Shown here one piece after another: positions 4,115 to 31,058 of a DNA stretch of 64,000 nucleotides. The notes beneath the pieces were generated by a model that saw nothing but the letters and a program-made list of their open reading frames with translations, did not search any database and was not told the DNA's origin. The position numbers and the translations under genes are program-made. Every line of letters starts with the position of its first letter. The first letter of the stretch is position 1. Source of the stretch: Nitrospirota bacterium (GTDB lineage: Bacteria > Nitrospirota > UBA9217); contig CAVVUN010000012.1 in the NCBI GenBank assembly GCA_963751455.1, positions 224,001-288,000 on the forward strand. The letters run 5' to 3'.

Positions 4115-4411
4115 TTATTCCCCCCTTAATCTCAAGTAATGGTGCCTTTATACATAGTATAGGACATTGAGGATAGTTAGAAGGGAGAACTTTGGGGACG
4201 TTGTGGCCCGAGTGTCAAAAAAAATCAGTATCAAATCAAGGGCCAAATTCGGGGACGTTGTTTCTATTTATGCTTTCCTTTGTCGACCCATTCTGAAAAG
4301 ACTCAGAACCGAGCAGATCGAGCCTGTCGTTTCGAATCAAACCAGAACGAAATACCTGCAGGTATAATTTAATTATCAGGAATCTGAAAACCCTGATAAG
4401 GAGGTAATCAC

Positions 4412-4678
4412 ATGAGAAAACTGGTGGTAGGTACATTCCTGACACTTGACGAAGTGATGCAGGCGCCTGGAGGTCCTGAGGAAGACCGTAGCGGCGGGTT
4501 CGAACATGGCGGCTGGATAGTCCCGTATTCTGACGAGATGATGATGCAAGTCATGATCGAATGGATCCGGAGGGCGGACGCACTCCTGCTCGGGCGGAAA
4601 ACGTATGAGATATTTGCCGCCTATTGGCCACATGTTACCGAAGCCGATCCGATCGCTGCGAAATTCAACGCCGCGCGC
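4412..4678 (+). pseudogene. Truncated dihydrofolate reductase-family gene
   Basis: MRKLVVGTFLTLD..QAPGGPEEDRSGGFEHGGW..LLLGRKTYEIFAAYWP; homology stops at ..KFNAA, exactly at the repeat site 4679-4708. Confidence 0.85.
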
Positions 4679-4712
4679 AACTTCCGGGACGTAGTGACCG
4701 AAATGGACTATT

Positions 4713-5027
4713 CTATGCCGCTTTTTTCCCCTGTAGCGGTTTAATCCCATCTATTGTCTTTTTTGATTTCACCATCGCCCAGTAAAGATCGTAGTCGGCT
4801 TGGAGGCCGAGCCAGACATCCGGCGTTGTTCCCAAATAACGGGACAGGCGAAGCGCCATGTCCGGGCTGACGCTCCGCTTCTCGTTCAGAATCTCGTTGA
4901 TCGTCCGAAACGAGGTTTTAAGCGCCTTTGCGAGGTCTGTCTGTGTGATTCCGAGAGGCGATATAAAATCTTCTTTCAATATTAATCCGGGATGTGTGGG
5001 CGGTCTTTTCAACTGAAACTTGGCCAT
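4713..5027 (-). CDS. higA: HigA family antitoxin (Xre HTH)
   Basis: PPTHPGLILKEDF..TQTDLAKAL..INEILNEKRSVSPDMALRL..WLGLQADYDL. Confidence 0.92.
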   Translation of the reverse strand: MAKFQLKRPPTHPGLILKEDFISPLGITQTDLAKALKTSFRTINEILNEKRSVSPDMALRLSRYLGTTPDVWLGLQADYDLYWAMVKSKKTIDGIKPLQGKKAA

Positions 5028-5119
5028 AAAATCTCCTTAATCAATCCAAGAACGAAATACAAAGTTTTTTGAGTCTTTTTTTATCCGTGCCTATCCGTGT
5101 TCATCCGTGGTTAAAACAG

Positions 5120-5180
5120 TTAATGATAATCCGTCACTTCGACTTCAGATGCTTCGCCGCTGCTGAACCTGAAAACGATA
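5120..5180 (-). pseudogene. higB: C-terminal remnant of a HigB toxin
   Basis: IVFRFSSGEASEVEVTDYH* immediately upstream of higA; the typical HigB ..DYH end. Confidence 0.75.
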
Positions 5181-5341
5181 TGGAGAACATTATAACACAT
5201 AGGGTTATAAGGCAAGAACTATTTACAAGGATGTCAAGCTAAAGTACGATGCAATCTCCCGTCCTTATTGAAGACCAGGCCCGTCCTGTTTTTTATAAAG
5301 GGTGTATAATCGAAAAATAAAGGACGAAAGGGGTGGTTTAT

Positions 5342-5719
5342 ATGAAATCAGAAACCAGGACACCAGAACTGAAGCATTTCGAAAAGCCTGATGAGGTGAG
5401 AGAGTTCCCGAAAGGGAAGGTAGAGGTGGTAAAAATCGCCGAAAAATCGATCGGCCGGCTGAGCTTGGAGCCGGGATGGAAGTGGTCTACGGCAGTCCAG
5501 CCCATTGTAAAAACGAAGAGCTGCCAGTTCTCGCATTTTATTTATCAGATCTCGGGGACCCTGATGGTGCAGATGGATGACGGCGCCAGGATTGAGATAA
5601 AGCCGGGCGACGTGACCCTGGTGCCGGGCGGGCATGACGCCTGGGTTGTAGGGGATGAGCCGGTTCTTTCCGTGGATTTCCAGGGGATGGCCGAATATGC
5701 GCTGAAAAAAGCGGCGTAA
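5342..5719 (+). CDS. Cupin domain protein
   Basis: FEKPDEVREFPKGK, LEPGWKWS, PGGHDAWVVGDEP. Confidence 0.88.
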   Translation: MKSETRTPELKHFEKPDEVREFPKGKVEVVKIAEKSIGRLSLEPGWKWSTAVQPIVKTKSCQFSHFIYQISGTLMVQMDDGARIEIKPGDVTLVPGGHDAWVVGDEPVLSVDFQGMAEYALKKAA

Positions 5720-6149
5720 AGGAGCTCGTTCAGCGGAATAACCCGAAATCAAGGAAGCTTACGGGTCACCTCAATGGAATATGGTGATTCAGGTGAACTT
5801 CGGGAAATTGATAAAGAATACCTTAGCAGGAGCAGGGGGGCGCTTCTTTACTTTTGAGGTATGTCAGCTAAAGAAGCGACCTCCCCATGCTATACCAGCC
5901 ATCAGGCGAAGCGTGCCGGTTGCCTTCTAAGATTCAGAATCCGATTGTCTGCGGACTCCTCGGAACAGGGGTTCATGCTGCGCTGCCTATGATACACGAT
6001 GCAAGATGCATGATACAGGATGCATGATGGAAGCGGCGAAGCTCGAGATACCATTGTACGATATCGAAGTCGGACCACGCTAAGATATTTAGCTTGGTCC
6101 GATCCCTAATACTTTAAGTCAGTCCGTTCGTAATAATGCGGACGATAAG

Positions 6150-6287
6150 CAAGTTAAATCAAAGCAGGCGCCGACAGGGCCATCGTCTGAAGCGAGACTT
6201 CAGGAACTCAAGAATCTAAAGGCAAAAGGCCTGATAACCGGGAAGGAATACGAAGCAAAAAGAAACGAGATTTTAAAAAAATTATGA
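6150..6287 (+). pseudogene. C-terminal SHOCT domain fragment
   Basis: EARLQELKNLKAKGLITGKEYEAKRNEILKKL*; no start codon; follows the inverted motif at 6068-6108. Confidence 0.75.
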
Positions 6288-6333
6288 TACGACTGATTGA
6301 ATCGGATGTCGATTTCTAGTTGTTGCCCGTTCC

Positions 6334-6362
6334 TTGACTTTAGGAGTTGCATAATATAGAAT
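6334..6362 (+). promoter_or_regulatory. Sigma70-type promoter
   Basis: TTGACT-N17-TAGAAT upstream of the large lipoprotein gene. Confidence 0.6.
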
Positions 6363-6547
6363 CTTAGTCACCTGCTAGATAGCCCGTCTTTAGCCACGAT
6401 AGCTACTCATAGACACTCGCTTAATTTAACAAAAAGCAAGCATAGAAACGCGATCGGATCGAATAACAGAGGGGAAGCATTTTGAGGACCAACTCCCCCA
6501 AAGCTCTTTTCGGGATTCATACTTTGACATACCAGGAGGATTCTTAC

Positions 6548-9364
6548 GTGAACAGAGTGATCGTGATGTTAGTGTCGGTTCTTCTTGTAACTATGACTGC
6601 GTGCAGCGGAAAGAATGGAGGAGGGGGAACAACAAGTCAAGTAGGAGTAGGATTCCCGGTCGGCGGGACAGTAAGCGGGCTTTCGGGCGCGGGCCTGGTC
6701 CTCCAGAACAACGGCGGCGACGACCTCGCCGTTTCGGCCAACGGCAGCTTCACTTTCGGCACCGCGATGGCAGACGGCAGCAGCTATGCTGTCACCGTCG
6801 CCACCCAACCGACAGGCCAGACCTGCACGGTTAATAACGGAACCGGCACCATATCAGGCGCATCTGTCACTAACGTCTCGGTAGTATGCGCCGTGACATC
6901 CTATTCCGTGGGCGGTACGGTGAGCGGACTTACGGGCAGCGGTTTGGTCCTCCGGAACAACGGAGCTGACGATCTCAGCATAAGCAGCAGCGGTTCTTTC
7001 ACGTTCACAACCAATGTGGCGGACAATGCAGGATATACGGTGACGGTCAAGACACAACCTGGCGGGCAGACCTGCGTGGTAAGTAACGGCACAGGGACAA
7101 TATCCGGAGCGAACATCACGAATGTTTCGTTATCGTGCACGGACAATCCGTATACGGTAGGCGGCGCAGTGAGCGGTCTCACGGGCAGCGGCCTGGTCCT
7201 TCAGAACAACGGGAGAGACGACCTCAGCGTGACTGCGGGCAATTTCACCTTTACTTGGCGGCTGGCTGACGGCGATTCATATGCTGTTACGGTCAAGACC
7301 CAGCCCACGGGACAGTTGTGTGCAGTCTCGAACGGAATCAGCACAATCCAGGGCGCACATGTAACGGATGTGGCCGTTCAGTGCGGCGTTAATTTAGGTT
7401 CCGTTTCGCCGTTTTATCCCACGAACGGCGCAGACTGGAACGACTATGTGAAAAACAATGGAGGGACCGTTTACAGCGCTGACGATACGGCTTGTGCTGG
7501 AACAGAGACAGGAGGCTACAGCGCGTGTCTTCACGGCGGGGAGATGCGGGTGGCAACAGTTACGGGCAAGTCCTCCTGCACGGCGCTTACGGCCTCTGAT
7601 GCCCTCGGAGCATTCGACTGGACTTGTGATGCTTCGACCGGCGCTGCCAGGTTCATCTCAACCGGGCTTAAGAATGAAAAAAACCTTTCTGACCTTATTG
7701 ATTTCACTGCTCCCGGCTGGGGGGCGAACTCCGTCATCGTATATGACGGAGGGACCGTTTACGGTACAACAATGTCATCCGTATGGTGGCAGAATCCCGT
7801 GACCATTGACAACGACGGAGGCCCGCTCGATGCTGCCGGGACCATTTATGTCGTGACAAACGATGCCCTCGCTCAAGGTTACACGATAAACGCCTCATCC
7901 GTGGGCCTCATGGGAAAGCCCGGGGTGATTATCAACGGTCCCGGGGGAGGCTCCTATTCACGCGTCATAAAGGCGGATGGTTCGGCGGACGGCGCAAAGG
8001 ACTTTCTCTGGATAGAAGGCAGCGTGGATGGAGCTGGCGATGCCACAGGTATTTATCTCAATACCGTAAGATTTTCGGTCCTCAGAAACGTCGAGGCCAA
8101 CAAAGCAGGTAATGGGGTTTATCTTCTCTTTTCCGACAACAATAAGCTTTCCCGCATCGCTGCTTCAAACAACACCGACACCGGAGTCTGGCTTGACGCT
8201 TCGCGGAGCAACAGTCTATCGGATATTACGACCTCAAACAGCACTGATGGCATTCAGCTTCGCAGCACTCCGCCTGCCGGCAATCCGTATGCCATGCCTA
8301 CCGTCCATCCGCATGGCAACAAGCTATCGGGTATAACCGCTATCGGCAACATAAGGGGGCTCTATCTCCGCGTAAGCAACAACAACATCCTGACGGACAT
8401 TACGGCATCAGACAACAGGTACGGAATTTCTTTTGAAGACGCGGATCGCAACTGTCTGATCGGAATAACGGCTTCGAATAATACAGTCTACGGGCTTCAT
8501 GCCGTATACGGCTCATACAATACCCTGTCCCAGCTTGCAACCTTGAACAGCGGCACCGGGGTTTATTTTGACGAGTCTTGGTACAATACGTTTTCCGATG
8601 TAGCGGTCTCCGATAATGAGCACGTCGGGATCAAGCTCGACACTTCCGGTGGAAACAAATTCACCGGTTTCCTGAGGGTTGGAAATAATGGAGCCGGTAA
8701 CTGTTCCGTAACCGGAGCCACAAACCCGTCCGCGGGGCTTTTCAGCGGGTGCGGCAACAATGGTTCTTCCGACGCAGTTCTTTTGACCGGCGTAACTCTT
8801 GGTTCTTCCTTCAAAGGTAAAGAGACCTCGGACGACGCTGTTAATGCAAACGATACAAACGGTTCTGCTTCTTTCAGCAGTATTACCGACTGGACGGGGT
8901 TTGAGAACAGGTACAGAGGCTGGGGCAACGACGGGAGCGCATTCCCGAACGCCGACAACCGGGGACCGTGTGAAACAGGCACATGCCGCATATGGGATTG
9001 GAGCCTCACGAGTTCAGACACGGTGATACAGGATGTGCTGAGCTTCCCCACAGGCTCGGCTTATTTGACCCACGTGTGGTACGTAAGCCCTGCGCCCAGC
9101 CAGCAATCGGACTGTGACAACGCTGTACCGGGCTCCGCCTTTGTCACGGACCACTGCGAGAGCGCCTTCCTCCGCCGCGCGGTGGAGATCGAGGGCGACG
9201 GAATAGGAAACGATAATACACTTTGCGAATCGAACGAGACGTGCCTCTCTACCCTGAACATAGGCGCCTATCAGGGCCATGGAAACCTCGTAGATGCAGG
9301 CGCAATCACCGACGGCGCGATAACCGGCGTAACGCTCAAGAGATACCAGACAAACGGCTACTAA
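6548..9364 (+). CDS. Large lipoprotein: three Ig-like repeats plus a parallel beta-helix (NosD-like) domain and Cys-rich C-terminus
   Basis: RBS AGGAGG before GTG 6548; lipobox MTAC; 3x VGGxVSGLxGxGLVLxNNGxDDL; repeated N-x-L-x-x-I-T-A-S-N-N beta-helix pattern. Confidence 0.8.
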   Translation: MNRVIVMLVSVLLVTMTACSGKNGGGGTTSQVGVGFPVGGTVSGLSGAGLVLQNNGGDDLAVSANGSFTFGTAMADGSSYAVTVATQPTGQTCTVNNGTGTISGASVTNVSVVCAVTSYSVGGTVSGLTGSGLVLRNNGADDLSISSSGSFTFTTNVADNAGYTVTVKTQPGGQTCVVSNGTGTISGANITNVSLSCTDNPYTVGGAVSGLTGSGLVLQNNGRDDLSVTAGNFTFTWRLADGDSYAVTVKTQPTGQLCAVSNGISTIQGAHVTDVAVQCGVNLGSVSPFYPTNGADWNDYVKNNGGTVYSADDTACAGTETGGYSACLHGGEMRVATVTGKSSCTALTASDALGAFDWTCDASTGAARFISTGLKNEKNLSDLIDFTAPGWGANSVIVYDGGTVYGTTMSSVWWQNPVTIDNDGGPLDAAGTIYVVTNDALAQGYTINASSVGLMGKPGVIINGPGGGSYSRVIKADGSADGAKDFLWIEGSVDGAGDATGIYLNTVRFSVLRNVEANKAGNGVYLLFSDNNKLSRIAASNNTDTGVWLDASRSNSLSDITTSNSTDGIQLRSTPPAGNPYAMPTVHPHGNKLSGITAIGNIRGLYLRVSNNNILTDITASDNRYGISFEDADRNCLIGITASNNTVYGLHAVYGSYNTLSQLATLNSGTGVYFDESWYNTFSDVAVSDNEHVGIKLDTSGGNKFTGFLRVGNNGAGNCSVTGATNPSAGLFSGCGNNGSSDAVLLTGVTLGSSFKGKETSDDAVNANDTNGSASFSSITDWTGFENRYRGWGNDGSAFPNADNRGPCETGTCRIWDWSLTSSDTVIQDVLSFPTGSAYLTHVWYVSPAPSQQSDCDNAVPGSAFVTDHCESAFLRRAVEIEGDGIGNDNTLCESNETCLSTLNIGAYQGHGNLVDAGAITDGAITGVTLKRYQTNGY

Positions 9365-9370
9365 AATTAA

Positions 9371-9404
9371 GCATCGGGGGAGCGCTGCTGCGCCCCCCCG
9401 ATGC
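9371..9404 (+). terminator. GC hairpin after the lipoprotein gene
   Basis: gcatcggggg..cccccgatgc stem. Confidence 0.6.
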
Positions 9405-9454
9405 CAGCTTAAGTTTCAAGTTGCAGGTTTCAAGTTTTTAAGAGATCGGACTTG

Positions 9455-9477
9455 GTAGCCGCAGGCTTCAGCCTGCG
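9455..9477. repeat. GTAG-type REP palindrome
   Basis: GTAG + cgcaggct tc agcctgcg. Confidence 0.65.
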
Positions 9478-9602
9478 TACTTTTGAAGGGTTCCGGAAAT
9501 GCAAGGTACGATATCGGGGTCGGACCACGCTAAACTACTGGTTTTCAAAAATTTATCATTCCAATAATAGGCATTTTCGGAGCCCATAGGGTCAGGTCTA
9601 CT

Positions 9603-9730
9603 GGGGTTGTTGCCTAAATCAAATTTGTGCTTCGACAGGCTCAGCACTAACGGAATAGTTTATGATTTCAAATGCAATGCCGTTCGCCCTGAGCTTGTCG
9701 AAGGGTGAACGGGGTTTAGGCAACGGCCCG
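9603..9730. repeat. REPIN/MITE-like inverted doublet
   Basis: Outer arms gttgcctaaa/tttaggcaac; inner arms cttcgacaggctcag/ctgagcttgtcgaag. Confidence 0.75.
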
Positions 9731-9745
9731 TACTTTGATGTCATT

Positions 9746-10080
9746 CTACTTCTTCGCGTTCACAATCCTGCTGATCGAAGTAAAATACATGCCTAGATGA
9801 TCAGCAACCTCACGCTGACGGTAGCCGTGCTTCTCAACCAATTGTTTGATTGCTTTATTGCGTTTCGTCATGTTCCCGAGTGTTTTCTTACTGAATAGCT
9901 TCTCGAGGGAAGGCCTGTCTACATACCGCTGACTCCGGGAAATCTCAGGGATATCTTTGTTTTTCTTGAGATGATACACGAATTGATCGACAAAGCCCTC
10001 CTCCCCCAGGAGTGATTGACCTCTCACCTCTGTCCAGATCGTTGGCTTCCCTATTCCCCAGCTTACGAACTGGCGGTATT
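9746..10080 (-). pseudogene. C-terminal half of a RAYT-type Y1 transposase (HTH tail)
   Basis: YRQFV..GIGKPTIWTEVRGQSLLGEEGFV..IPEISRSQRY..RPSLEKLF..HGYRQREVADHLGMYFTSISRIV; fused upstream to unrelated sequence. Confidence 0.75.
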
Positions 10081-10566
10081 GCCATAGCTGGACCACTTCC
10101 AGTCGTCAACCGAATCGACAATAACATCCCGCAGTACATGATCGGCGCAGATGGGGCGCTCACAACCATGACCCCGGCCACAGTCGCAGGAGCACGGGTC
10201 CCTACTCCATCACGACTGTCGGCAGCTATCAATAAAAGGAGAACAGCCAAGGGAAGCATTACGATGCGCATCAAAGCAATGCCTTCTGACTTATTCTTCT
10301 TATTCTCCAATCAAAAAACCGCCAGGGATATTGATCCTTGGCGGTTTTTTTCTTCAGCTCATCGTTTTTCGTCGCGGCCTCCAAAGAGCCTAAGATGTTT
10401 CCAGAAAAAATCATTCCTAAACTGAAAAGTGATTTTCAAGACACGATCCTATTTGGTTCCGGCCCCATTTGGTTCGCACGTGCGCGGTTCATGATTAACG
10501 GATTTCCGGTTTTACGTTGCTTATTTCGTAAGTCCATTTCCGCGTCACTTCAAAATGATGCACGAT

Positions 10567-11040: not shown

Positions 11041-11370
11041 TTCAGTTTCTCCTCTCAGAAGCATTTTAAATCGGATAACCTATCCTTATTTAGGATAGCA
11101 TGCATTATTGACTCTTGTCAAAAACCTAGGGTCACCCATTTATTTTATAAATAGCACGATCGTTTCAGATCAGGTTCAAGAAGCAAATAGCAGAGGTCAG
11201 AGCGAGGAGACGAATATAGGATGCAGGATAAAGGGTTTAAAGATGACCAGGACCGGAATTAATTTCTTAACAGTGACCTTTTCCCTACTTGCTTGGTTCG
11301 CCCCTGGCTCCTTGATTTTTCCTGTTAAACTGAGAGCCCATAGCAAGCCCATAGAATCAGGTCTACTGGG

Positions 11371-17353: not shown

Positions 17354-17370
17354 TACAAAGCGCACAAATA

Positions 17371-19447: not shown

Positions 19448-19945
19448 TCAGGAAGCAAATCGTTCCATTAAAGACTCTATAAATTTGCCGGCATATTGTC
19501 CATTCCCAGTGGGTTCAGCAAACAGCTTTACATCGCCGGTGACCCGTGCATTGCCAAAGAGCAGGGCGTTTCCGGCGCCTTCAGCTTTTGCCAACACCTC
19601 GGCAGCCCCGGTTATGACTGCATCGCCGTGCACACGCGCACATCCGTGGATTTTGGCATCGTCCTGGACTTTGGCATTGCCGAAAACCCTCGCACTCCCG
19701 AAGATTTGCGCGCTGCCCGACACTTCCGCCCTGTCCGATATCGAGGCGCTCCCGAATACAATCACATCGTCGCTGACTTTGCAATGACCGCAGACCTTTG
19801 AGCAAGGACCGACATAGACTGTGTCCGCTACTTGTGCAGTCTCTGCAATCAGGCCTCCCCCGTTCGGATGGTGGTGATATTTTACTCCGTCGATTTCTAA
19901 AACCGGTCCCTTCGAGACGTTGAGGGTCAGGTCTACTTTAAACAC
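19448..19945 (-). CDS. Left-handed beta-helix (hexapeptide repeat) protein whose N-terminus is replaced by a mini-element
   Basis: HPNGGGLIAETAQV + (V/I)xGxAx repeats; near-identical to 57325..57828 except the first residues. Confidence 0.75.
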   Translation of the reverse strand: MFKVDLTLNVSKGPVLEIDGVKYHHHPNGGGLIAETAQVADTVYVGPCSKVCGHCKVSDDVIVFGSASISDRAEVSGSAQIFGSARVFGNAKVQDDAKIHGCARVHGDAVITGAAEVLAKAEGAGNALLFGNARVTGDVKLFAEPTGNGQYAGKFIESLMERFAS

Positions 19946-20239
19946 CGTTCAACTGACGCATGCCGAGAGCAAGGTTGCCGTCCGGAGTCTCGATGAGAAG
20001 ATGATAATGGTTGGTCATGAGACAGTAGGCATGACAAATCCAGTTGTAGCGTTTGTTGACGTGCTGAAGCGTGTTCAAAAAGTTCTGACGGTCCGCGTCA
20101 CTCTTAAAGACGGGCTTTTTCTCGTTTCCACGGGAGGTGACATGATAGACTGCGCCGGGGTATTCGATGCGGAGAGGACGGGCCATGGAGCAACTATAGC
20201 AGAAAGTGGACACAATGACAAGAAAGTAGACCTGACCCT
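19923..20239 (-). mobile_element. 317-bp internally deleted RAYT mini-element with a 17-bp perfect inverted repeat
   Basis: AGGGTCAGGTCTACTTT (19923-19939) / AAAGTAGACCTGACCCT (20223-20239); contains MARPLRIEYPGAVYHVTSRGN..AYCLMTNHYHLL..QLNGV* (19938-20186) with the HUH motif. Confidence 0.88.
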
Positions 20240-20284
20240 GAAAGTTGCTTCCCATCAATAAGCAGCAAGACAAAGCCCATCATA

Positions 20285-20335: not shown

Positions 20336-23300
20336 TTATTTTCTTTGATCGTGGGGGACAATCACGGTCGCCGTCTCAGTCGACTGATTCCCCGCCCTGT
20401 CGGTAACAACGGCAGTAATCGTATATACTCTGCCGTCTTTGTCCGTCCCTTCACGCCACGCTTCGAGTGCGATGAAACTATTGAACCCGCTTATTGATGG
20501 CTGTACCAGGCCGTATTCATCGGTAACGGTAAATACGATCGATTCAATGCCTGAATCCGTATCAATGACTCCTCCGTTTATTTTTACGTTTACCATCTTA
20601 TGGTTCGGCGGCCAGAGTATATTTGTTGACGGGAAGAGATCTATTTCGGGTTTTGCTTTGTCGATCTTCACCGTAACCGTTGCATCCTTCGAATTGCCCG
20701 CCTTATCGGTAGCTGTGACGGTTATGGTGTGCTCCGCGTCGGTATTAAACGTTTGCGGTTCGGGGCAGGTGTCGATGCCCGATCCGCCCGTGTTGTCAGT
20801 GCAGGTGAAAGTCACCGTTACATCAGTGTTGTTCCATCCGTTTGCGTTCGGAGAAGGTGATATCGAAGGAGTGATCACGGGCTTTGTTTTGTCGATGTTC
20901 ACAGTTACCGTCTCATCTCCTGTGTTGCCGGCTTTATCGTGAGCCGTGATGGTTATGACATGCCGCCCGTCTGTGGTAAGGGTTAGCGGTTCCGGGCAAG
21001 TGTCGATGCCCGATCCGCCCGTGTTGTCAGTGCAGGTGAAAGTCACCGTTACATCAGTGTTGCTCCATCCGTTTGCGTTCGGAGACGGTGATATCGAAGG
21101 AGTGATCACGGGCTTTGTTTTGTCGATGTTCACAGTTACCGTCTCATCTCCTGTGTTGCCGGCTTTATCGTGAGCCGTGACGGTTATGACATGCCGCCCG
21201 TCTGTGGTAAGGGTTAGCGGTTCCGGGCAAGTGTCGATGCCTGATCCGCCGATGTTGTCGGTGCAGGTGAAAGTCACGGTTACATCGGTGTTGTTCCAAC
21301 CGAAGCTATTAGGGGCGGGAACTGCCGATGGCGTGATCGTCGGCGGCGTCTTGTCGATGTTTACCATGATCGATGTGTCAGCCGAATTATCCGCGTTGTC
21401 CTTTGCATGGCCGGGTATGACAGTTCCCGTGACCTCGGTCGTAAGATGAACGGGGGACGTACAGGTATCTATGTCCGACCGGTCATCCTTGCATTCGAAA
21501 CTCACCGTAACATCCGAATTATTCCAGCCGTTCCTGTTCGGATCGGGCGAAATCTTCGGGTCGATTGAGGGAGGCGTCTTGTCGATGCTCACAGTAGTCG
21601 AGCCGGAACCAGGATTGCCCGCCTTATCAGCCCCTGCTCCGGTCACCGTTTGATTGCTGACTTCATTCGTGACCGTCACACGTTGAGCACACGTTGCAAT
21701 GCCGGACAGCGTGTCGTCGCAATGGAAGCCGACTGTTACATCAGTCTTGTTCCATCCTTTCCCATTGGGAAGAGGATCCTTATCCGCGGTAACCGTGGGC
21801 GGGGTTTTATCTATTTTGACCGGCCTGGAGTCAACGTCTTCCTGGTTGCCGGCGTTGTCTTTCGCATTAAAGAAAACGATATGAGCGCCTTCCGAGGCAA
21901 GGGTAAAGGATATTTCGTCTCCCGCTTTCTTGATCTCCGCAGCTTGATCTATGCGGTACGCGATCTCTCTGACACCCGATCCGGAATCCGATGCGTTTAA
22001 AGAGAAGATCACATCGGAAGAATACCAATTCTCCATTCCGGACGTGCCGCTGATCAAAGGCGTCGTGTCCGGCGGTATTGTATCCCGGACCGTGATCGTA
22101 ACCGTATCGGATGCCGTCTCCAATCCGATTGACACCGTAAGAGTCACTGTTGTGGTGCCGGCGGATAGCAGGACTGCCGGATTTGCACCAGCCGCAGACC
22201 CGCCGGGCCAGGACCATGCGTAGATCATGTCTCCCGTACATCCTTCCTGTGTCGCCGAGCCGTTCAGCTCAACGGTCGCGCCGTCCGAAGAGGTCTGTTC
22301 CACAAACTGATCGGGACCCGCATGCGCGGTAACTACACAGCTCTGAAAGCCTGCAAAAACCTGCACATTATTGTTATACGGATTCGAATCGGTGATAAAT
22401 ACCTTTTTCCCGTCCGGTGAAACTGCTATGCCGTAGGGAGTATTAAACTGTCCATCGCCCGCACCTTGCGAGCCCCACTTCCCCAAATAATTCCCCATGC
22501 TATCGAAAACCTGCGCTCTGTAGTGGCCGGCATCGATTACATAAAGATTCCCTGCGTAATCCACTGTCAGACCGGAAGGGCGAAGAAACTGTCCATCGCC
22601 GCTTCCCGACGATCCGACGGTTCTCAGAAAAGTTCCCGTGTCGGAATAAACCTTGATGGTGTTATCTGCACTGCTCAAGTAGACGTTGTTTCGTGCGTCC
22701 AGGGCGATGAACGAACTGACGCCAGTTCCCCATGCGCTCAGTAAATTTCCGCCGGTATCGAGAATCACAAGCTTGCCGCCGTCACTTACGAATATATTAT
22801 CATTTGAATCTATTGCTACCCCGGTTGGATTCGAAAATGCAGTTTCATCGGCGCCGTAAGAGGTCCATTTTGCTTTGAATGTGCAGGTATTGTCGAATAC
22901 CTGTACTCTCTTGTTCTCTCTATCGGTCACGTACACGTTTCCATTCGAATCCAGCGTTACTTGAGCAGGTGATCTAAATTGCCCATCGCCTGTCCCGCCG
23001 GGATATTCTGATCCGCACGTATGGATGAATCCGCCGGTACTGTCGAAAACCTGCACTCTGTTCTTGCCGGTATCAACTACGTACACGTTTCCGTTCATGT
23101 CGGTAGCAACACCCTGGGGCTGCTTCAAAATGCCATCGCCCATTATATGATGCCACATTCTTATGTAGGACCCCTCATTGGTGAAAAGCTGGACATTCTG
23201 GTAATCCGTCACATAGACGTTTCCTGATGAATTAACGGCTATGCCTGCGGGATGCGCAAACTGTCCTGCCAGGTTGCCTTGAGATCCCCATTTTCTGAGG

Positions 23301-24100
23301 AATGTACCGTCGCTGTTAAAAACCTCCACGCGGTATTTCGTATGATCCGTAACAAAAACATTGCCGTTTGAATCAACCGCGACGCCTTCCGGATATCCCA
23401 ATTGATTATCGCCGGTACCACTCCATTTCTTGATAAAATTACCCTCACTATCAAAAACCTGTATCCTCTTGTTGCCGGAATCAGCTACGTACACGTATCC
23501 GCTTTGGTCCACAGCAATGCCTCTCGGAACTATAAAATCGCCGTCATCGATGCCGTATTCACCCCATCTCCGCAGGAATTTACCGTCAGCATCAAAGACC
23601 TGTACATAGTCGTTTCCCGAGTCGGTCACATAAACATTATCATTTGCATCTATGGCAATCCCGTTCGGCTGATAAAATTTCCCGTCCCCTTTGCCCATAG
23701 AACCCCATTCTCTCAGGAACTCGCCCGTTCTGCTGAAGACCTTTATCCGGATATATGCCGACATATTGCCGCCGCTCGTGACGTACACGTCTCCTTTCGA
23801 ATCCACTGCGATGCCTCTGGGGATCGCATATTTGCCGAACCCTCCCCATGTTCTTAATAACCTGCCTTTATTGTCGAAAGCCGTCACTTGCTTGGCGGAA
23901 TAATCGATTACGAACATATTGCCGTTTGAATCGACCGCGACTCCGTTTGCATAGAAAAAGGTATAGTCTTCGACACCCCATTTATATAAAAAATCGCCTG
24001 GTGCGGCATGGACCGGCGGACAAAGGAACGCTAGGAACAATGTGAAAAGAAAGATGAAACGAGATACCCGATATCTATACATAGCTGTGATGGTCAACAT
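20336..24100 (-). CDS. Secreted NHL-repeat beta-propeller protein with PKD/Ig-like stalk and LWPPNHKM-type C-terminal domain
   Basis: Signal peptide; about 12 P.G(I/V)A(V/I)D..GNVYV.D repeats; repeated GWNNTDVTVTFTC..SGI..CP modules, including near-identical 231-bp units. Confidence 0.9.
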   Translation of the reverse strand: MLTITAMYRYRVSRFIFLFTLFLAFLCPPVHAAPGDFLYKWGVEDYTFFYANGVAVDSNGNMFVIDYSAKQVTAFDNKGRLLRTWGGFGKYAIPRGIAVDSKGDVYVTSGGNMSAYIRIKVFSRTGEFLREWGSMGKGDGKFYQPNGIAIDANDNVYVTDSGNDYVQVFDADGKFLRRWGEYGIDDGDFIVPRGIAVDQSGYVYVADSGNKRIQVFDSEGNFIKKWSGTGDNQLGYPEGVAVDSNGNVFVTDHTKYRVEVFNSDGTFLRKWGSQGNLAGQFAHPAGIAVNSSGNVYVTDYQNVQLFTNEGSYIRMWHHIMGDGILKQPQGVATDMNGNVYVVDTGKNRVQVFDSTGGFIHTCGSEYPGGTGDGQFRSPAQVTLDSNGNVYVTDRENKRVQVFDNTCTFKAKWTSYGADETAFSNPTGVAIDSNDNIFVSDGGKLVILDTGGNLLSAWGTGVSSFIALDARNNVYLSSADNTIKVYSDTGTFLRTVGSSGSGDGQFLRPSGLTVDYAGNLYVIDAGHYRAQVFDSMGNYLGKWGSQGAGDGQFNTPYGIAVSPDGKKVFITDSNPYNNNVQVFAGFQSCVVTAHAGPDQFVEQTSSDGATVELNGSATQEGCTGDMIYAWSWPGGSAAGANPAVLLSAGTTTVTLTVSIGLETASDTVTITVRDTIPPDTTPLISGTSGMENWYSSDVIFSLNASDSGSGVREIAYRIDQAAEIKKAGDEISFTLASEGAHIVFFNAKDNAGNQEDVDSRPVKIDKTPPTVTADKDPLPNGKGWNKTDVTVGFHCDDTLSGIATCAQRVTVTNEVSNQTVTGAGADKAGNPGSGSTTVSIDKTPPSIDPKISPDPNRNGWNNSDVTVSFECKDDRSDIDTCTSPVHLTTEVTGTVIPGHAKDNADNSADTSIMVNIDKTPPTITPSAVPAPNSFGWNNTDVTVTFTCTDNIGGSGIDTCPEPLTLTTDGRHVITVTAHDKAGNTGDETVTVNIDKTKPVITPSISPSPNANGWSNTDVTVTFTCTDNTGGSGIDTCPEPLTLTTDGRHVITITAHDKAGNTGDETVTVNIDKTKPVITPSISPSPNANGWNNTDVTVTFTCTDNTGGSGIDTCPEPQTFNTDAEHTITVTATDKAGNSKDATVTVKIDKAKPEIDLFPSTNILWPPNHKMVNVKINGGVIDTDSGIESIVFTVTDEYGLVQPSISGFNSFIALEAWREGTDKDGRVYTITAVVTDRAGNQSTETATVIVPHDQRK

Positions 24101-25683
24101 ATGATCCTCCCGGGGAAAGAAATTTTGCAGACTCTCAACTGCTGTTTTAAAATAGAAATTTTACTAATTGAAAGACAATCAGAAAATCCCGATTTCCGGG
24201 CGCCAAAGATTTTTAGCAATAATAAAATACGGAAAGATAGTTAAGGTAAGATTGAAAAAGAATTTATTACAAACTCGAACAATAAAAATTATACGCAAGA
24301 GAAAATTGGAAGTCAACATAATTTTATTTGTAATTTCCATAAAAAATGTACCAAAACTGAAACAAAATTTCTTTGTTCCCGAGGGGGATTTCCGGAAAGA
24401 ACTTTGGGGAACGTTGGTTCTCAAAATGCTTTCCTCCGTTTTCATTTTGATAGATGAATTGCTGGGAGGTGTTCGGCGACATGGAAAAACTTCTCAAGGT
24501 GTTCTCCCGAGGCTACTACGCTGAGTTCCGAGTTTCAATTTCCAAGCTTAATTGTGCTAATGAGGCGAGAATACTATTTTTAAGAGAAAGGGGCAAGGGA
24601 AAGTTAAAGCAGACGTGAGACGACAATTAGTCGACCAAGAAGCGACACACTGCACTCCCGCTAGTGCAGTCGTAACCGACTGGGTTGCAGGCGAGGTGAT
24701 GGGGTGACGCCGAGCGTTACGAATGCACCTTCGCCACCTGGTGAGTTCCCTTCGGCAGGAGCCGGTGCCTTCCTTTGCAAGTCGCGGGATTCAATCCGGC
24801 TAAGCCGCACGCCGTATTGGGCTTAATTTCTTTTTGACCTCTCTTGCCGAGCACTTTGTCTTCGATCGGCTTTTTCCATCCGGACCCGGATGAGAGTCTT
24901 TGTCGCTCAGGCAACGAACATGGCCAAAGGAACGTAACGTAGTACTGCGGAATTGATTTTCATAAGTTTGACCTCCTGGCGCATTTCCCGGCGCCTTATG
25001 CTTCTGAATTTAGCGCTCATCGGAGGCGAGTCAATTGACCCAATGTATTAGCCGGCCGTGGGCTTTTGACCCGACGAAAGACAAGGAGGATAAGCCAACA
25101 GATTTTCGCCGCGTGCATCTTCTGAGGAGATCCGCCAGCAGCTGAATACGCCCTATAATGCGACCTCCCCGCGACTGACCCCTTCCCCGTCCAAAGCCGG
25201 GATCATATGTCGCAGCGGGATTGGGTCACTTTCTTGCCCTGACGCAGGTTTTAGCGTCGCTTAGGGTTCTCGCGCCCAGCGGGTGCGAGAGCGCAGGATG
25301 GCACGCAAGAAAGGCGACAAAAAGAGCTGTGAAGAATGAGAAATGCAAAAAGTTCCACTCATTATGGAGAAGAGCCAAAAGAAAAGATCTCGAACATCAA
25401 GGCATGAAGTTCAGCCTGTATTCGCGCTTTGGCTCATGTTCACTGGCCGCAAGCAAGATCCTTATCTTTTTCGCACCAGCCGCTCGCAGCACCACCCAGA
25501 CATGCCAAAGACTCAGAACCCGATTGTCTGCGGACTCCTCGGACACGCGATTACATCGCTGATATTCTGCATATCCAGATACTGGATATCGGGGTCGGGC
25601 CACGCTAAACTACTGGTTTTCAAAAATTTATCATTCCAATAATAGGCATTTTCTTAAAGATTCTCCCTTCAATTGAAGCGCCC

Positions 25684-27120
25684 TTACCCCGCCGGCTGAG
25701 GCACCGATCCTGAGTAAAACGGCGCGCACTTTTCTCGCTGAATGAATTTCCTCGCGCTCTTGAGGGCGTTTGACATTGGCCCGGTAATTGACTTAAGCGC
25801 GCTTGCCTCGATCTCCGGCTTGAGCAATGGTCCATGCACTTTCTGCCTGTACACAGCGCACCCCCGCTTATCAAGCACTGCTACGGATGTGTCAATAAGC
25901 CGGTCGTTGACGAGATTCAATCCTCCCCTCATGGCGATCCTGTGCTTGTTTGAAGCAAGGGCCACATCCGACGCTTCCGCAATGCCGTGATCGACTTTCC
26001 AGATTGCAACGAGTTTTTTGATGCTCCCTTCTCCGCCTCGTGACTCTTCGTGATACAGACGTCCGAAATTATAGCTCTTGGTGAGCAACGGTCCGAACGG
26101 GCCCGCAAGTAAGAACGCCCCGGCGTCCACAAGGTTGAAGTTCTGGCAGCGCTTGAATTTTGAGACAAGGGCATCGATATTGGCGCCGGAGAACGTAACA
26201 TTTTCGCCTTTCAGGGAAACGTCGCCGCTGAGCGACCGTTTCATCTCATCCATGCTCTTCCCCTTTGCAGTCAGGTTCGCGGAAAAGTCCGTCAGCCCTT
26301 CTATGGTTTTTGCAGGGATGTTTTTGGGCGAGAATTCCCGGATAAGATCTGCGATTCTGAACCGGCTGAGAGCACAGAACACCCGGTAACGAGGGGCTGC
26401 ACCCGTCGCGTCCAGGTGCAAGCTCCCTTTCCCGCTCCCCCCGAAAACGTTCATCCTGGCCCGTTCGATATCGAACATTCCCCTTCTTCCTGTTATTTTC
26501 ATCGCGATGTTCGATACGGCGAGGTTGTTGCTCTTGACTGTCCTGCACCTGATATCCCCGGTGAATGAAATGTTCCTGAGCAGCTCCGCTGAATCCGACC
26601 CGCTGTATGAAACGTTTCGGAGGGTCAGATCAAGGCGTTCCGCTTCAATCTTTTCTCCGGATAACTTATCTGTAAAAACAAGCGTCCCCTGAAAGATGGA
26701 CGACGCCGGTATCGAAAGCGGTTTTTCCGACGGCGCCGGCCCTGGTTTGTCAAAATTGAACGTTCCGTTCCGGTAACGGACTACGGACATGGCCGGCCTC
26801 ACGAACTCGACCCGTCGTATCCGGACTTCGCCCCGCACGAGGGGAATGAGTTCCAGGCAGATCGTCATCTTCTCAATAGTGGCGACATTGGTTCCCTTGT
26901 TTCGGACGCTGACGTCCTCCATCGATATCGCGAACCCGGGAGTAAAAACGATGCCCATCCTGCCGTTGATCCGGACATCCATTCCCGCAGCCTGCGAGGC
27001 AGCTGCTTCGACCTGCGGTTTAAAGGTTTTGATTTCGAGCAGGAGAGCCGCGATGATCGCTGCAACAAGGACGATTACGATCGTTGCTATAAATATTATT
27101 TTTTTCTTCTGTACTATCAT
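25684..27120 (-). CDS. AsmA family protein
   Basis: N-terminal TM, KPQVEAAASQAAG.DVRI.G, C-terminal AsmA-like beta repeats. Confidence 0.8.
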   Translation of the reverse strand: MIVQKKKIIFIATIVIVLVAAIIAALLLEIKTFKPQVEAAASQAAGMDVRINGRMGIVFTPGFAISMEDVSVRNKGTNVATIEKMTICLELIPLVRGEVRIRRVEFVRPAMSVVRYRNGTFNFDKPGPAPSEKPLSIPASSIFQGTLVFTDKLSGEKIEAERLDLTLRNVSYSGSDSAELLRNISFTGDIRCRTVKSNNLAVSNIAMKITGRRGMFDIERARMNVFGGSGKGSLHLDATGAAPRYRVFCALSRFRIADLIREFSPKNIPAKTIEGLTDFSANLTAKGKSMDEMKRSLSGDVSLKGENVTFSGANIDALVSKFKRCQNFNLVDAGAFLLAGPFGPLLTKSYNFGRLYHEESRGGEGSIKKLVAIWKVDHGIAEASDVALASNKHRIAMRGGLNLVNDRLIDTSVAVLDKRGCAVYRQKVHGPLLKPEIEASALKSITGPMSNALKSARKFIQREKCAPFYSGSVPQPAG

Positions 27121-27471
27121 TTTTCACATTCGTCGAACTTGACAACGTAAATTTTGATTTGACGTTGGAATGGGTAGCGAGAGGGCGCAATGCGGACCTC
27201 CTGCAAAACTGCAGTTGATGTTATTTTACGGGCGGGTTAGGGGAAAGTATGTGATTTTGATTACGGAGGTCGCTGATATTTTTCCGGGAACAGGTGGTTG
27301 AGATAAAAGGGCTCATAGGACATAATGACATTCCGGACACGACATCCCAAAGTTCCCCATGGCGGGAATAGTTACGGACAGGATTTTGTCGGGGGTCAGC
27401 GTAACCTTCCCCCGATCCTGTCCGCCTCGAAGTTTTCTCACGCTGCATGGACGATTCTTCTCAGTGATCGG

Positions 27472-28163
27472 CTAGTTCCCAGGCGAAGAAACACCTCCCG
27501 TCGCCGCTCCTATCTCGCCTATTTGAGCATGCGCCTGTTCGGCGGCAGCCAACATCGGTTGCGCGTCAGTTATTATCTGCTGGCCGTCATTAATCGTTTT
27601 TTGGACAACAGAACTGATCGCATCGACTCCTGAAGCTGACAGGTCATTCGATAGATAGGTTTTTATCTGCTTGAGCTGAGACAGATAGGTGTTAACCTGG
27701 GCTTTTACTCCCCAGCTGGGTCCCGCTATTTGGCTGAACGTGTCCATGAGCTGGGAGCGTCTCTCGTCACTGAGCTGCTGTATCTGGGGATTAGTGTATG
27801 TATCGCCCGACTTACTCCACTCTGCGAAGTAGTCAATACCTCTTGCCGTCATCTGGTCACTGTCCTTGATGAACGCTGCTGCGGCTTTATCCATTTGCGA
27901 AACATTTATCGAATATGCATCGAAAGCAGTTTTCGCGGCAGGTGTACCTTTCAACTGGATTACCCGATTCAGGGACGCGTTTGTCGTGTTAATCTGTGAC
28001 GTCATTGCCTCATTGCCCTGATATCGCCTTCGACTGCCTCAATCGAGGTTGTGGTTTTTTCCGCACTCGTCTGGACGGGCGGTGTCTTCTTTTCTGCACA
28101 GCTTCCGACAAGCAAGACAGAAACGAGGAGAAGCATTATCGTTATCTCTCTTCGGACTATCAT
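27472..28163 (-). pseudogene. Second DUF2959-like lipoprotein copy, frameshifted by an 8-bp tandem duplication
   Basis: Paralog of 2118..2834; TCATTGCC duplicated at 28002-28017 splits the ORF. Confidence 0.85.
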
Positions 28164-28379
28164 GATTGATCTCCTTTCCTTAAATGTATTTCCATTAATC
28201 AAATTCTGCGAAATACATCCATGCCTTATGGAAAACGTCATCCTACCCATATTATGACACCGCTGCCTGTAAGACGTCTTATGTCGTACAGATGCTCTCA
28301 TAACCCCAATATTTGCCGCAATCAAAGTCGAGCATGAAGATCATAACGCTCCGACAAAAGTATTTGCGCATTAAGGTTC

Positions 28380-28624
28380 ACTGGCAATCACGCCGCCCGG
28401 GGGGAGGCTTCGTCCGGAGGAAAGGTCAAGTACATCCTCAATCAGCCGGTAAATCCAGGAAATCTTCATCACCGTTCCGCCTGGGATCAGAGAGGGGCAG
28501 AAGATCAAACTCAAAGGTCTGGGTGAAGAGGGAAAGCACGGGGGTGAAGCGGGCGATCTTTTTCTCAAGGTCAAGAATTCGACGGCCGCTTTTTGAAAGG
28601 GTAAAAGGAATATTGAGGGGATGA
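28380..28624 (+). pseudogene. DnaJ C-terminal domain remnant
   Basis: IFITVPPGIREGQKIKLKGLGEEGKHGGEAGDLFLKV; frameshifts, no start. Confidence 0.75.
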
Positions 28625-28816
28625 GTCAAACATTACAGACCTGCCTCTATTGATTCTAAGATGCTCCCCGTTTAAACAAAAGTCCAACAGTATGGACCTG
28701 ACCCCAGGGTTGTTTTGAATGGATATTATGAATGCAGACGATGAAGTCAACGCAAAAAAAGCAAATATAAACATTAAAGACCCTGACCCGATATATTCTC
28801 CTCAGGGAGGTATCGA

Positions 28817-28955
28817 ATGGCTGTATGGTTTCCTTTACTGAAAGCTTCGCTTCCTTACATAACGCAATTGGTAACAGCAGCGATCCCTGCTTTTATCTCT
28901 AAATCCACCACTGAAAAAGATGCGGACATTGTCCCAAAGCAAATCGCAGAACTCA
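28817..28955 (+). pseudogene. N-terminal fragment of a hypothetical protein
   Basis: RBS GGAGG, MAVWFPLLKASLPYITQLVTAAIPAF..KQIAEL, then apparently unrelated sequence; starts right after the stacked end motifs. Confidence 0.45.
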
Positions 28956-29060
28956 GTGAAGGCGTTGGCTGCAAGGCACTATCCCGCTTCCTGCTACTTT
29001 TCCTGCATTGACAGAAAAGGATCCCTTTGCTTTATATGAAGAAGGGAAAGGAGATATGTC

Positions 29061-29495
29061 ATGACCGAGCAGGAAAAAAATATAGAGATTGTGAAAGATA
29101 TGTTCTCCGCGTACGGCAGGAAAGACCTGAAGACTCTCGTTGCCCATGTGGCGGAAGACAAGGTCGACTGGAAGTGCCCCGTGACCGGCGATATCTCCGG
29201 CATGGGCTTCGCGAAACCCCGGCACAACCGGCATGAGGTGGAAAGCTTTTTCAAGGAATTCCTGGACGCGGTCGAGCCTATCGAAGAAAAGCCCGTGCGC
29301 TTCACCGCCCAGGATGACCGCGTGATCGTGGAAGGGATCGAGCACAGCAAGGTCAGGTCCACGGGCGTCGAATACAAGGCCGACTTCGTGATGGTGATCG
29401 AGCTGAAGGATGGGAAAGTGACGCAGTTTCACTATTACCTGGACACGGAAGATATGAGGCGGGCGCTGCGGGGGGAAGTCAGCAAGGCGGCCTGA
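29061..29495 (+). CDS. SnoaL/NTF2-like protein
   Basis: NIEIVKDMFSAYGRKD..DRVIVEG..KDGKVTQFHYYLDT. Confidence 0.88.
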   Translation: MTEQEKNIEIVKDMFSAYGRKDLKTLVAHVAEDKVDWKCPVTGDISGMGFAKPRHNRHEVESFFKEFLDAVEPIEEKPVRFTAQDDRVIVEGIEHSKVRSTGVEYKADFVMVIELKDGKVTQFHYYLDTEDMRRALRGEVSKAA

Positions 29496-29571
29496 CAACG
29501 AACGCGAGGCCGGCAAAATCAACTTAAAGGAAAAGGAGAGGGATTATCCCTTAAAACAGTATGAAGAACAG

Positions 29572-29956
29572 AGAACAAATATATAAAGAGATGGAAGAGA
29601 AGCTCGGGCTCGTCCCGGGTTTCCTCAAAACAATTCCGGACTCGACTCTTGAGCATGAGTGGGAGCTTTTCAAGGAAATACAGCTCGGGGATGGCGCAGT
29701 CCCGAACAAATACCGCGAGCTTATAGGCTTGGGGATATCGGCAGTTTCCAAATGCAGTTACTGCACGCTCTACCATACCGAGATGGCGAAGCTGTTCGGC
29801 GCTACCGATAAGGAAATTGAGGAGGCCGTGCATTATGCCAAGGCAAGCGCCGGGTGGAGCGCATACTTGAACGGCATGCAGGTCGATCATGAACAGTTCA
29901 GGGACGAACTGAGGCGCGCCGGAGAACATGTTAAGAAAATGAAGAAAGCCGCGTGA
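29572..29956 (+). CDS. Carboxymuconolactone decarboxylase/AhpD family protein
   Basis: KYRELIGLGISAVSKCSYCTLYH (CxxC); ATG at 29572. Confidence 0.88.
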
Positions 29957-30383
29957 CCACACCATTAAAGAGCGAGGCCAGAAAGGAACTCTGAGCATTT
30001 ACCCTGTGCTCAGGGTTCCTTTTGTCCAACCGTGACAGCAAGAGAAAATAATCCGGAATTTCATGGATAACCATATCGACATTGACTTTAAAAAGACTAT
30101 TGTGATTAAGAGGAAGAGAAGTTGAAGCGATCCGGGAAGTTCCGCTCGGATAAAGCAATCTTCGGACAGCAGAAAAGATTTCACTACTATGCACGTTGAC
30201 TCAAGTGAAACGGCTATCGATTAAGAATTGAAGGATGAGAAAAACCCCAGCTATTCTCTAGCCATTTCGGTCACTACGTCCGCAACGGCGTCCCCGGTCG
30301 AACCGCCAGATTACCAATGTTCTTCCTCTGGAATCTTCCGTCCCCAAAGTTCTTCAGGCCTCACAGTCTCCGCGTCAGTCTCA

Positions 30384-30872
30384 TCACGCTGCTTCCCGCT
30401 GATCATAGGCCTGCTGCAGCTTCTTCATGTCGAGCTTGGTCATTTTGAGCACCGCCTTCATGACCCGCTTCGCTCCCTCCCTGTCCTTCATCAGCTCTCC
30501 GAGAACAGCGGGGGCGACCTGCCACGACACGCCGTACTTATCTTTCAACCAGCCGCAAACGTTCTTCTCTCCGCCCTCGGACAGCTTCTCCCAGAGCAGG
30601 TCGATCTCTTCCTGCGTATCGCACTTGATCATGAACGAGATCGCCGGCGAGAAGGAAAATGTCGGACCGCCGTTCAGAGCCATAAAATCCTGCCCATTCA
30701 GATGGAACTCGACGGTCATCACCGACCCGGCAGGCATACCCGCCGCTGCTGCGGCCTCCTCGGTGTAGCGGGTGGTCGTGATGATCTTCGAATTCTTGAT
30801 AAGGGAAACATAGAATTTTACGGCTTCTTCGGCCTGGGTATCAAACCATAAGAAGGGGGTAATGTTCTTCAT
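30384..30872 (-). CDS. VOC/PhnB-like (3-demethylubiquinone-9 3-methyltransferase family) protein
   Basis: ITPFLWFD, ALNGGP.F, CGWLKDKYGVSWQ. Confidence 0.92.
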   Translation of the reverse strand: MKNITPFLWFDTQAEEAVKFYVSLIKNSKIITTTRYTEEAAAAAGMPAGSVMTVEFHLNGQDFMALNGGPTFSFSPAISFMIKCDTQEEIDLLWEKLSEGGEKNVCGWLKDKYGVSWQVAPAVLGELMKDREGAKRVMKAVLKMTKLDMKKLQQAYDQREAA

Positions 30873-31058
30873 GGCGAATTTCTCCTTTCGATTGTTTCGT
30901 TAATTTAATTATACATGCTGGAGGACAGAGGTGCCTTGTCGGTGTCGCTTCGCGTCTGTAGGGACATGATGAGGACCTGGCAATCAGTGAAGCGGTCAGG
31001 AGTGGATTGGAAATGTAACTGGCCTATTTAACAAGGCCACTCGGGACACTACGTCCCC

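Follow-up and report, generated by a model that had tools for sequence, protein, structure and literature searches.

A 64,000-nucleotide stretch of a Nitrospirota genome (GCA_963751455.1, hereafter G000; contig CAVVUN010000012.1, or C12, positions 224001-288000; other C-numbers are further contigs of G000) contains a recurrent motif, and this stretch is referred to below as the window. The motif, found between positions 3183 and 31058 of the window, had been read in an earlier note as an att-like recombination site with GGACG as its crossover core. Here, we report that it is, with very little doubt, the terminal inverted repeat (TIR) of GGGGACGT-type TIRtrons, whose TIRYT gene encodes a Y1/HUH enzyme of subclass 2.1 with a C-terminal helix-turn-helix (HTH) domain. 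The copies in the window are probably orphan ends left by one-ended cutting and joining via the elements' own Y1/HUH enzyme, a reading to which we assign a probability of roughly 0.7. The genes beside these ends are truncated exactly at them and are likely scars of one-ended joining rather than products of an att-type crossover.

The intact element and its orphan ends

A perfect 28-bp inverted repeat (CTTAGGGGACGTAGTGACCGAAATGGAC), the two copies of which are approximately 1.06 kb apart, frames a single Y1 gene of 322 aa (C9:160374-161342) at C9:160303-161371, which is the kind of intact, motif-flanked gene that the earlier note had proposed to look for. A 98.8% identical copy of its left end is present at C1:394116-393770, and the shared sequence begins at AACTTA (-6; TIR positions are numbered relative to GGGG, negative values lying outside the element). 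The C9 protein contains the catalytic motifs H60-V-H62 and Y119-IHL-N123-P124 (Y1_Tnp, PF01797, E=5e-12), and H60, H62, Y119 and N123-P124 are conserved in 36 homologues. Its C-terminus matches HTH_38 (E=2.5e-4), Bac_DnaA_C (E=0.0028) and HTH_23 (E=0.02), all under the curated cut-offs, and a structure model based on a 36-sequence alignment (pLDDT 84.7) has a helical C-domain, with TnpAREP (4ER8, E=3e-6) as the best PDB match.

Paired TIRs around a Y1-HTH gene were likewise found in 65 two-ended relatives. These came from 110 loci of related genes (L-numbers), among which 11 duplicates and four further loci (masked, endless or with another TIR type) were set aside, and which gave 160 distinct ends in addition to the two-ended elements; the closest related proteins are mostly from Nitrospirota. 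As the ends of the relatives were chosen via a GGGAC anchor, the invariance of the core is partly by construction, and part of the end data of the relatives refers to the ends listed. Placement in subclass 2.1.2, which follows from domain layout and TIRs, should be considered a probable one. GGGGWSAS, published for some TIRs only, is matched at six of eight positions by GGGGACGT and fully by other TIR families of G000 (GGGGTCAG).

All the motif copies listed in the earlier note are present in the window. The core GGGACGT[AT]GT occurs four times there, compared with a mean of 0.07 (maximum 1) in 30 Markov simulations, and a profile of the right half has 17 matches at >=20 bits in G000, the two facing C9 ends among them, and none in the reversed genome, while the exact left-half 14-mer has only two occurrences genome-wide. 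An independent metagenome set of 59 distinct ends was obtained by an exact 20-mer search, many of which adjoin the same gene at 73-86% identity. Because RRRAC-TTT is the modal outer sequence of the TIR at these metagenome ends, the whole motif of the earlier note is the TIR including its outer tip. A profile built from 101 TIRYT-flanking ends outside G000 recovers six of the seven listed copies at >=13 bits (4194, 4251, 4685, 24407, 30283 and 31058, but not 27347), two of the six scoring only 14-16 bits, where the reversed-genome control still gives matches.

Only the outer part and the core are common to the copies; the inner halves fall into approximately four TIR subfamilies, and the copies are orphan ends of these subfamilies rather than one site. 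Two plus-strand copies lie close together near the left edge of the window. The first (4188-4219, 26 bits; outer hexamer AACTTT at 4188-4193, GGGG at 4194) belongs to the GTGTCC/GTGGCC subfamily and is like L042. The second is a left end of the GTTTCT subfamily, like L049 (4245-4310, 34 bits), which retains a decayed segment normally leading to the TIRYT start codon. A decayed duplicate of the latter at 3180-3234 (+), 92% identical to 4260-4310, has lost ACGTTG after GGGG; it is the remnant noted at 3183, a copy of the 4251 end. The end at 4679-4708 (+) is a C9-subfamily TIR of the right-end type (AACTTC CGGGACGTAGTGACCGAAATGGAC; 34 of 37 positions identical to the C9 right end). The GGTTCT subfamily (like L037/L081) is represented at 24399-24435 (+; 26 bits), with one additional A in the core, and, L037-like in its inner TIR at 6506, by a decayed end at about 6472-6515 (-), 75% complementary to 24391-24434, which the earlier list had overlooked. 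Another decayed end, of the GTGTCC subfamily, lies at 27327-27358 (-); it scores 15 bits with the right-half profile, was missed by the profile from outside G000, and has an inner part like that of L042, as does 4187. By its sequence layout, the region 30259-30355 (-) is a stub array followed by a TIR (30281) of the C9 type, as at 4679. Finally, the end at 31035-31058 (-), whose inner TIR is intermediate, has no outer bases, and its first G directly adjoins a truncated TIRYT gene. That gene belongs to a left end with the 5' part of TIRYT from another TIR family (GGGTCAAATC type) at 31059-31523 (-), 88% identical to an intact copy at C6:113036-113507. A 25.6-kb composite element between 4685 (+) and 30283 (-) is supported by orientation only and is not claimed.

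Junctions, broken genes and end-stubs

In the 65 two-ended elements, inverted identity between left and right ends exceeds the permuted baseline from -6 inward (0.40-0.66 vs. 0.27-0.49) and is at baseline from -7 outward. For junction mapping, 258 ends were examined, of which 18 had an uninterrupted homologue of the flank and 14 were interpretable; the four rows left out were C10 (partner with a decayed TIR), L205 (a stub pair), and L119 and L186 (both ambiguous), whereas L035, L141 and L215 were counted after correction for stub length. The junctions lie at 0, -4, -5, -6, -6, -8, -8, -8, -9, -9, -10, -10, -12 and -13 relative to GGGG. Therefore 13 of the 14 junctions with unrelated DNA are 4-13 nt outside GGGG, the remaining one (31058) being at the first G, and the bases between junction and GGGG differ from those of the uninterrupted homologue. 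None of the four filtered rows yielded an uninterrupted homologue that carries the core at its junction. Pairs of nearly identical ends located at different flanks (47 in total) have 0-9 outer nucleotides in common; this number is 4-9 in 11 of the 12 pairs from the C9 subfamily and 1 in the other, while pairs of other subfamilies often share only 0-2.

Target duplication was not detected in the 65 elements, in which repeat lengths equal the control at every offset from 0 to 12 (>=6 nt: three observed, 2.7 expected). Likewise, no empty site was found when the flanks of 78 elements were compared with all loci and G000, and searches at genus level gave no genome in which both flanks are adjacent, among 15 genomes for G033 and 6 for G052. 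One syntenic site was detected by tblastx (L047 vs. C4 of G000), but its divergence is too great and a decayed TIR is present in it; this TIR, at C4:37620-37760, occupies the same intergenic position as the whole TIRtron in L047. No joints were seen in four sequencing runs (shares 0.06-0.07, contigs), which were not used as evidence.

Two genes in the window are broken at ends. At 4412-4678 (+) lies the 5' fragment of a DHFR/RibD_C-like gene (PF01872, E=0.0027), and four full-length homologues (192-200 aa) read K-F/Y-V/I-A-S where the window has N-F-R. The break is at the TIR tip, within AA|C at approximately 4679-4681, that is, 4-6 nt outside the GGGG equivalent and not at GGACG; the outer part is kept there as AACTTC, which is at odds with the description of 4679 as a chimera retaining mainly the right half. 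The AAG-TTC of the homologues resembles the tip AAC-TTC, and some target resemblance is possible. The break of the RAYT gene at 31058 was confirmed, at the first G of GGGG.

On the inner side of the 4679 end, a higA antitoxin gene (4713-5027, -; TIGR02607, E=2e-30) has its stop 5 nt inside the TIR, and the TIR-higA joint (4683-5041) recurs in G038, which has a complete higBA, in G039 and in a metagenome contig. In the window (4713-5179) higA is orphaned, most of higB being deleted here and in G039, while the full pair is present in G038. These joints show an exchange of DNA at the TIR tip, from which cargo transposition does not follow by itself; a transfer of TIR-higBA as cargo between G038 and G039 was rejected, as both adjoin glnA.

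Many ends are preceded by tandem prefix copies of their own tip and part of the core, here called stubs. They were found at 36 of 160 ends of the relatives, compared with 19 of 3177 in the control (0.6%), and at 6 of the 55 ends of the metagenome set used for this count. Stubs reproduce the local tip variant, and the commonest stop point is core position 7-8 (GGGGACG/T; 16 of 36), with a range of 0-30. L189 and L205 represent one locus without and with a 12-nt stub (GTATTAGGGGAC). The same arrays are seen in other TIR families of G000. Overall, the prefix copies range from approximately 7 nt up to 370 nt; the longest, in one of these other families, precedes a full family-A element on C15 that replaces 397 bp of a family-B element. 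TIRtrons of the GGGTCAAG family are nested or in tandem at C15:1322900-1324870, C1:184298-186124 and C1:504818-506360, and different contigs hold near-identical copies of them; one of them holds an IS200-type gene, the right joint of the nest lying directly after GTTC.

The split copy at 30259-30355 (-) reads GAAGAACTTTGGGGACG (30355-30339), restarts with GAAGA at 30338 and with GAAGAACATTGG at 30325, passes GGGGACG at about 30295 and continues as GGACGTAGTGACCGAAATGG (30281-30262); the terminal unit after the third GGGGACG is GGACGTAGTGACC. The inner stretch, described earlier as approximately 56 nt of foreign DNA with GGACG on both sides, is indeed flanked by GGACG, but it is 57 nt long (30338-30282) and is not simply foreign: it holds restarts of the TIR end, namely GAAGA at 30338 and 30325, like the first unit at 30355, and a third GGGGACG (GGGAC at 30294). 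About 30 nt of filler in the array have no identified source; a search of G000 for the source of the 57 nt gave only chance-level matches of up to 17 nt, and a search with window positions 29850-31100 gave homologues of genes only and none of the stub array. The copy is best read as several iterated end-stubs with unexplained filler, rather than as one insertion with duplication of GGACG.

The proposed mechanism and its rivals

We propose a nick-extend-transfer model, for whose chemistry and order of steps we consider the odds to be slightly better than even. The C-terminal DnaA-like HTH would bind the inner TIR on double-stranded DNA, and the HUH domain would nick the inward-reading strand at a site defined by distance (approximately 6-10 nt outside GGGG) and not by a strict sequence. 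The tyrosine of the enzyme would stay linked to the 5' end of the element, while the 3'-OH of the flank would prime displacement synthesis, and the linked end would then be transferred to a 3'-OH, near or far. If the 3'-OH belonged to the newly made strand only a few bases inward (frequently past GGGGACG/T, with 1-3 nt of microhomology), the product would be a stub, as at 30259-30355; transfer to a far one would break a gene at the TIR (4679, 31058), delete adjacent DNA or produce a tandem prefix copy, with the DNA inward of the TIR attached. By analogy with TnpAREP and IS91, such a scheme would be expected to duplicate prefixes, delete adjacent DNA and form stubs and one-ended joints, all in the absence of target duplication. 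Co-variation between HTH and TIR, with partial correlation peaks at residues 302-323 (0.23-0.24) and 267-281 (0.23) and with AT at residues 310-311 paired with TTAC in five of five cases, suggests that the HTH binds the inner TIR.

More tentatively, and at somewhat less than even odds for the reading as a whole, TIRtrons may be active HUH transposons of an undescribed type. The HTH would read the double-stranded TIR, and the Y1 domain would nick the flanking DNA at a measured distance; strand displacement would begin separately at each end, on the strand of that end, and pairing of the inverted ends as a panhandle would keep the two tips alike. Solo ends would then allow one-ended mobilization, through which accessory genes are stacked, truncated and swapped into islands like this 30-kb region.

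Several observations weigh against one-ended joining by the elements' own enzyme, or against parts of the scheme. The co-variation of HTH and TIR is not significant on independent pairs (1-6 pairs per test), and the mechanism is deduced entirely from sequence, in which the strand and the position of the nick are not distinguishable. A 3'-OH at the element end that attacks a sister copy would give the same stubs. The stubs begin anywhere from -4 to about -12 and terminate at core positions 0 to 30, a variability that replication slippage would also give, and 26 of the 47 near-identical pairs share just 0-2 outer nucleotides, the tip thus being not always inherited. G038 and G039 share glnA on the far side of the TIR-higA joint and differ only outside the TIR, while G000 differs on both sides. 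No clean pair of empty and filled sites was found, so that two-ended transposition is only putative.

The main rival, which we regard as unlikely, retains the TIRtron end but assumes a fixed cut in the core at ACGT, after which host repair would rebuild the outer bases or the other end would supply a copy of them, the stubs being footprints of cutting and rejoining. The preferred stub end at core position 7-8 agrees with it, as do overlaps at clean joints, which are often CG, GT or CGT (2-nt overlap in 9 of 22, none in 8 of 22), small indels that cluster at GGGGA^CGT (24406, 3183, L127) and the absence of the outer tip at 31058. However, all the other mapped junctions meet unrelated DNA outside GGGG, with intervening bases that mismatch the uninterrupted homologue, and the stub ends are spread from 0 to 30. 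It is considerably less probable still that the ends are passive, the enzyme only binding to them, and that the host produced the stubs and broken genes, by slippage in replication and by microhomology-mediated deletion, at repeats of an accessory island that are bound by protein or rich in G. In that case the variable breakpoints and the short microhomologies would be expected, whereas the polarity of the stubs, which in the listed cases copy the outer tip and sit outside the end, the near-identical elements and ends at unrelated flanks within one genome, the nested and gene-interrupting joints at the tip and the conserved catalytic residues would not.

The att-like site of a site-specific recombinase, with the split copy as an integration that duplicated the GGACG core, is largely refuted and very improbable. 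The GGACG on both sides of the 57 nt and the frequent stop of stubs at GGGGACG are in its favor, but the copies form inverted pairs around one gene instead of direct attL/attR pairs, the junctions are spread over 0-13 nt outside GGGG with no fixed core common to both partners, homologues with the core at the junction were not found, and the 57 nt hold restarts of the end itself. Such scatter is what the earlier note had named as evidence against its own proposal; its broader view that the motif is related to recombination stands, in that it is a DNA end and not a transcription-factor site. A primary role as a transcription-factor binding site is the least probable: the motif has spaced GAC units and is located approximately 40-50 nt upstream of TIRYT start codons, where autoregulation by the HTH is plausible, but it also occurs inverted at the 3' end of the gene and at gene breakpoints, no more than 18 of 64 family genomes contain its 20-mer (1-4 copies outside G000), and it clusters with other TIR families.

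Neighboring DNA, related systems and significance

The first 33 kb of the window are a mixed TIRtron graveyard. Of 34 ends, 19 lie <=10 kb from an end of another TIR family, compared with 3.1 at random (13 of 28 without the window). Ends of other families (GGGTCAGGTC and GGGTCAAATC types) are located at 9589 (+), 11565 (-), 19924 (+), 20238 (-), 28704 (-) and 31522 (-), and truncated TIRYT genes at 19938-20273 and 31059-31440. Two DUF2959 units (2017-2921 and 27371-28263; 78% identical) break at the same base (..GTCCGTAAC) and continue into ends of different TIR families, a pattern also seen in L079, and the shared breakpoint suggests reused junction points; the second unit, whose start the earlier note had placed next to 27358, ends at 27371, approximately 22 nt outside the core and not at the motif. 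An AsmA-family gene (25672-27288) is 99.3% identical to C12:218828-220443, approximately 30 kb upstream, where the copy ends beside a GGGGTCT-type repeat. Large repeat-rich surface-type proteins (NHL/Ig, RCC1, Big_5) at 20336-24100, 33000-36290 and 59293-63990 are ordinary.

Further observations were made on the elements themselves. A TTGAC(A) box follows most left TIRs, and solo left ends may supply a promoter to neighboring genes (e.g., L001:2030-2075). Gene-less miniature elements of approximately 70-130 bp consist of two facing TIRs (C6:270095-270162; L009, L011/L025, L019 and L192). At L182:1520-1710, a TIRtron has an additional stretch of approximately 180 bp between left TIR and gene, which has at least 12 homologues in G000 and is probably an unrelated small repeat element. 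In addition, another repeat end (..AAAAGG[AG]CTAAACT[AG]TTAC) was found 20-30 nt outside TIRtron ends at four loci in three genomes (C9:161390-161410, L115, L116 and L121).

TIRtrons/TIRYTs (Di Nocera, De Gregorio, and Rocco 2013, PMC3733652) belong mostly to subclass 2.1 of Quentin et al. 2018 (PMC6006769), and the same class corresponds to TnpA-Y1 subclass 2.1.2 (PMC6006769) and to RAYT group 1 (Bertels et al. 2017, PMC5581495). The elements studied here share with them a RAYT-like Y1 gene with HUH, Y---NP and a C-terminal DnaA-like HTH, a protein length of about 300-330 aa, long TIRs at a fixed distance, the absence of REPs, and further TIR repeats that occur singly, as dimers or in clusters at other places of the genome, and differ in the core, GGGGACGT having the above six matches to the published eight-base consensus. 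Present in 14.9% of strains, subclass 2.1 ranks second in size among the TnpA-Y1 subclasses; Quentin et al. reported no evidence of mobility for it and doubted that the HTH recognizes the TIR (PMC6006769). RAYT group 1 has the highest RAYT duplication rate, 6.2% (PMC5581495). In a preprint (10.1101/2020.03.09.984088), subclass 2.1 genes and fragments were linked to prochlorosin clusters, the causal claim having been withdrawn. End position, a target-duplication test, end-stubs, one-ended joints, nested insertions and evidence of mobility were not found in the TIRtron literature covered by our search, which extended to main texts and a minority of subscription journals, figures and supplements lying outside it.

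Cleavage by HUH enzymes generates a 5'-phosphotyrosine and a 3'-OH. For TnpAREP/BIME amplification in E. coli, a nick-extend-religate model was proposed (Ton-Hoang et al. 2012, PMC3333891), which would yield stubs like those seen here. TnpAREP also resembles the C9 enzyme in catalytic fold (4ER8), low cleavage-site specificity and strand transfer that builds tandem copies (PMC3333891), but it recognizes a hairpin in single-stranded DNA, has a GTAG-type guide and cuts at C^T, whereas here there are a TIR and an additional HTH domain, with no CT rule at the junctions. IS91/ISCR elements likewise have an HUH enzyme, no target duplication, and one-ended transposition that mobilizes adjacent DNA (PMC13181058). 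However, IS91 has a tetranucleotide target and lacks TIRs, its ends (oriIS and terIS) being distinct from each other, whereas in the elements studied here one sequence forms both ends in inverted orientation; IS91/ISCR was rejected as an identity for this reason, and by eye no target motif was apparent at the 14 junctions. IS200/IS605 elements are characterized by precise tetra- or pentanucleotide cleavage. IS608 and ISDra2 of this group share the Y1 HUH fold and the lack of target duplication (PMC3333891), but have subterminal hairpins instead of TIRs, a Y---Q motif and no HTH extension. Two further identities were rejected: a REPtron (RAYT with REP/REPIN), because the flanks are TIRs and not GTAG-footed REPs in high copy (there are approximately 34 ends in 5.7 Mb) and NF047646 gives 70 bits, under its cut-off of 80; and a classical DDE insertion sequence with TIRs, because the enzyme is Y1 and duplication lengths are those of the permuted control.

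The TIRtron class has already been described (Di Nocera 2013; Quentin 2018), and what is added here is mainly the mapping of junctions. A native, apparently intact enzyme and its exact substrate are now available; nicking is predicted in a zone 4-13 nt outside GGGG, GGGGACG(T) stands out as a stub hot spot and no target duplication is expected, and therefore the question of how a single-strand HUH enzyme acts on inverted ends becomes directly testable. If one-ended joining is confirmed, the truncation and shuffling of genes in accessory islands would have an overlooked source in orphan TIRs.

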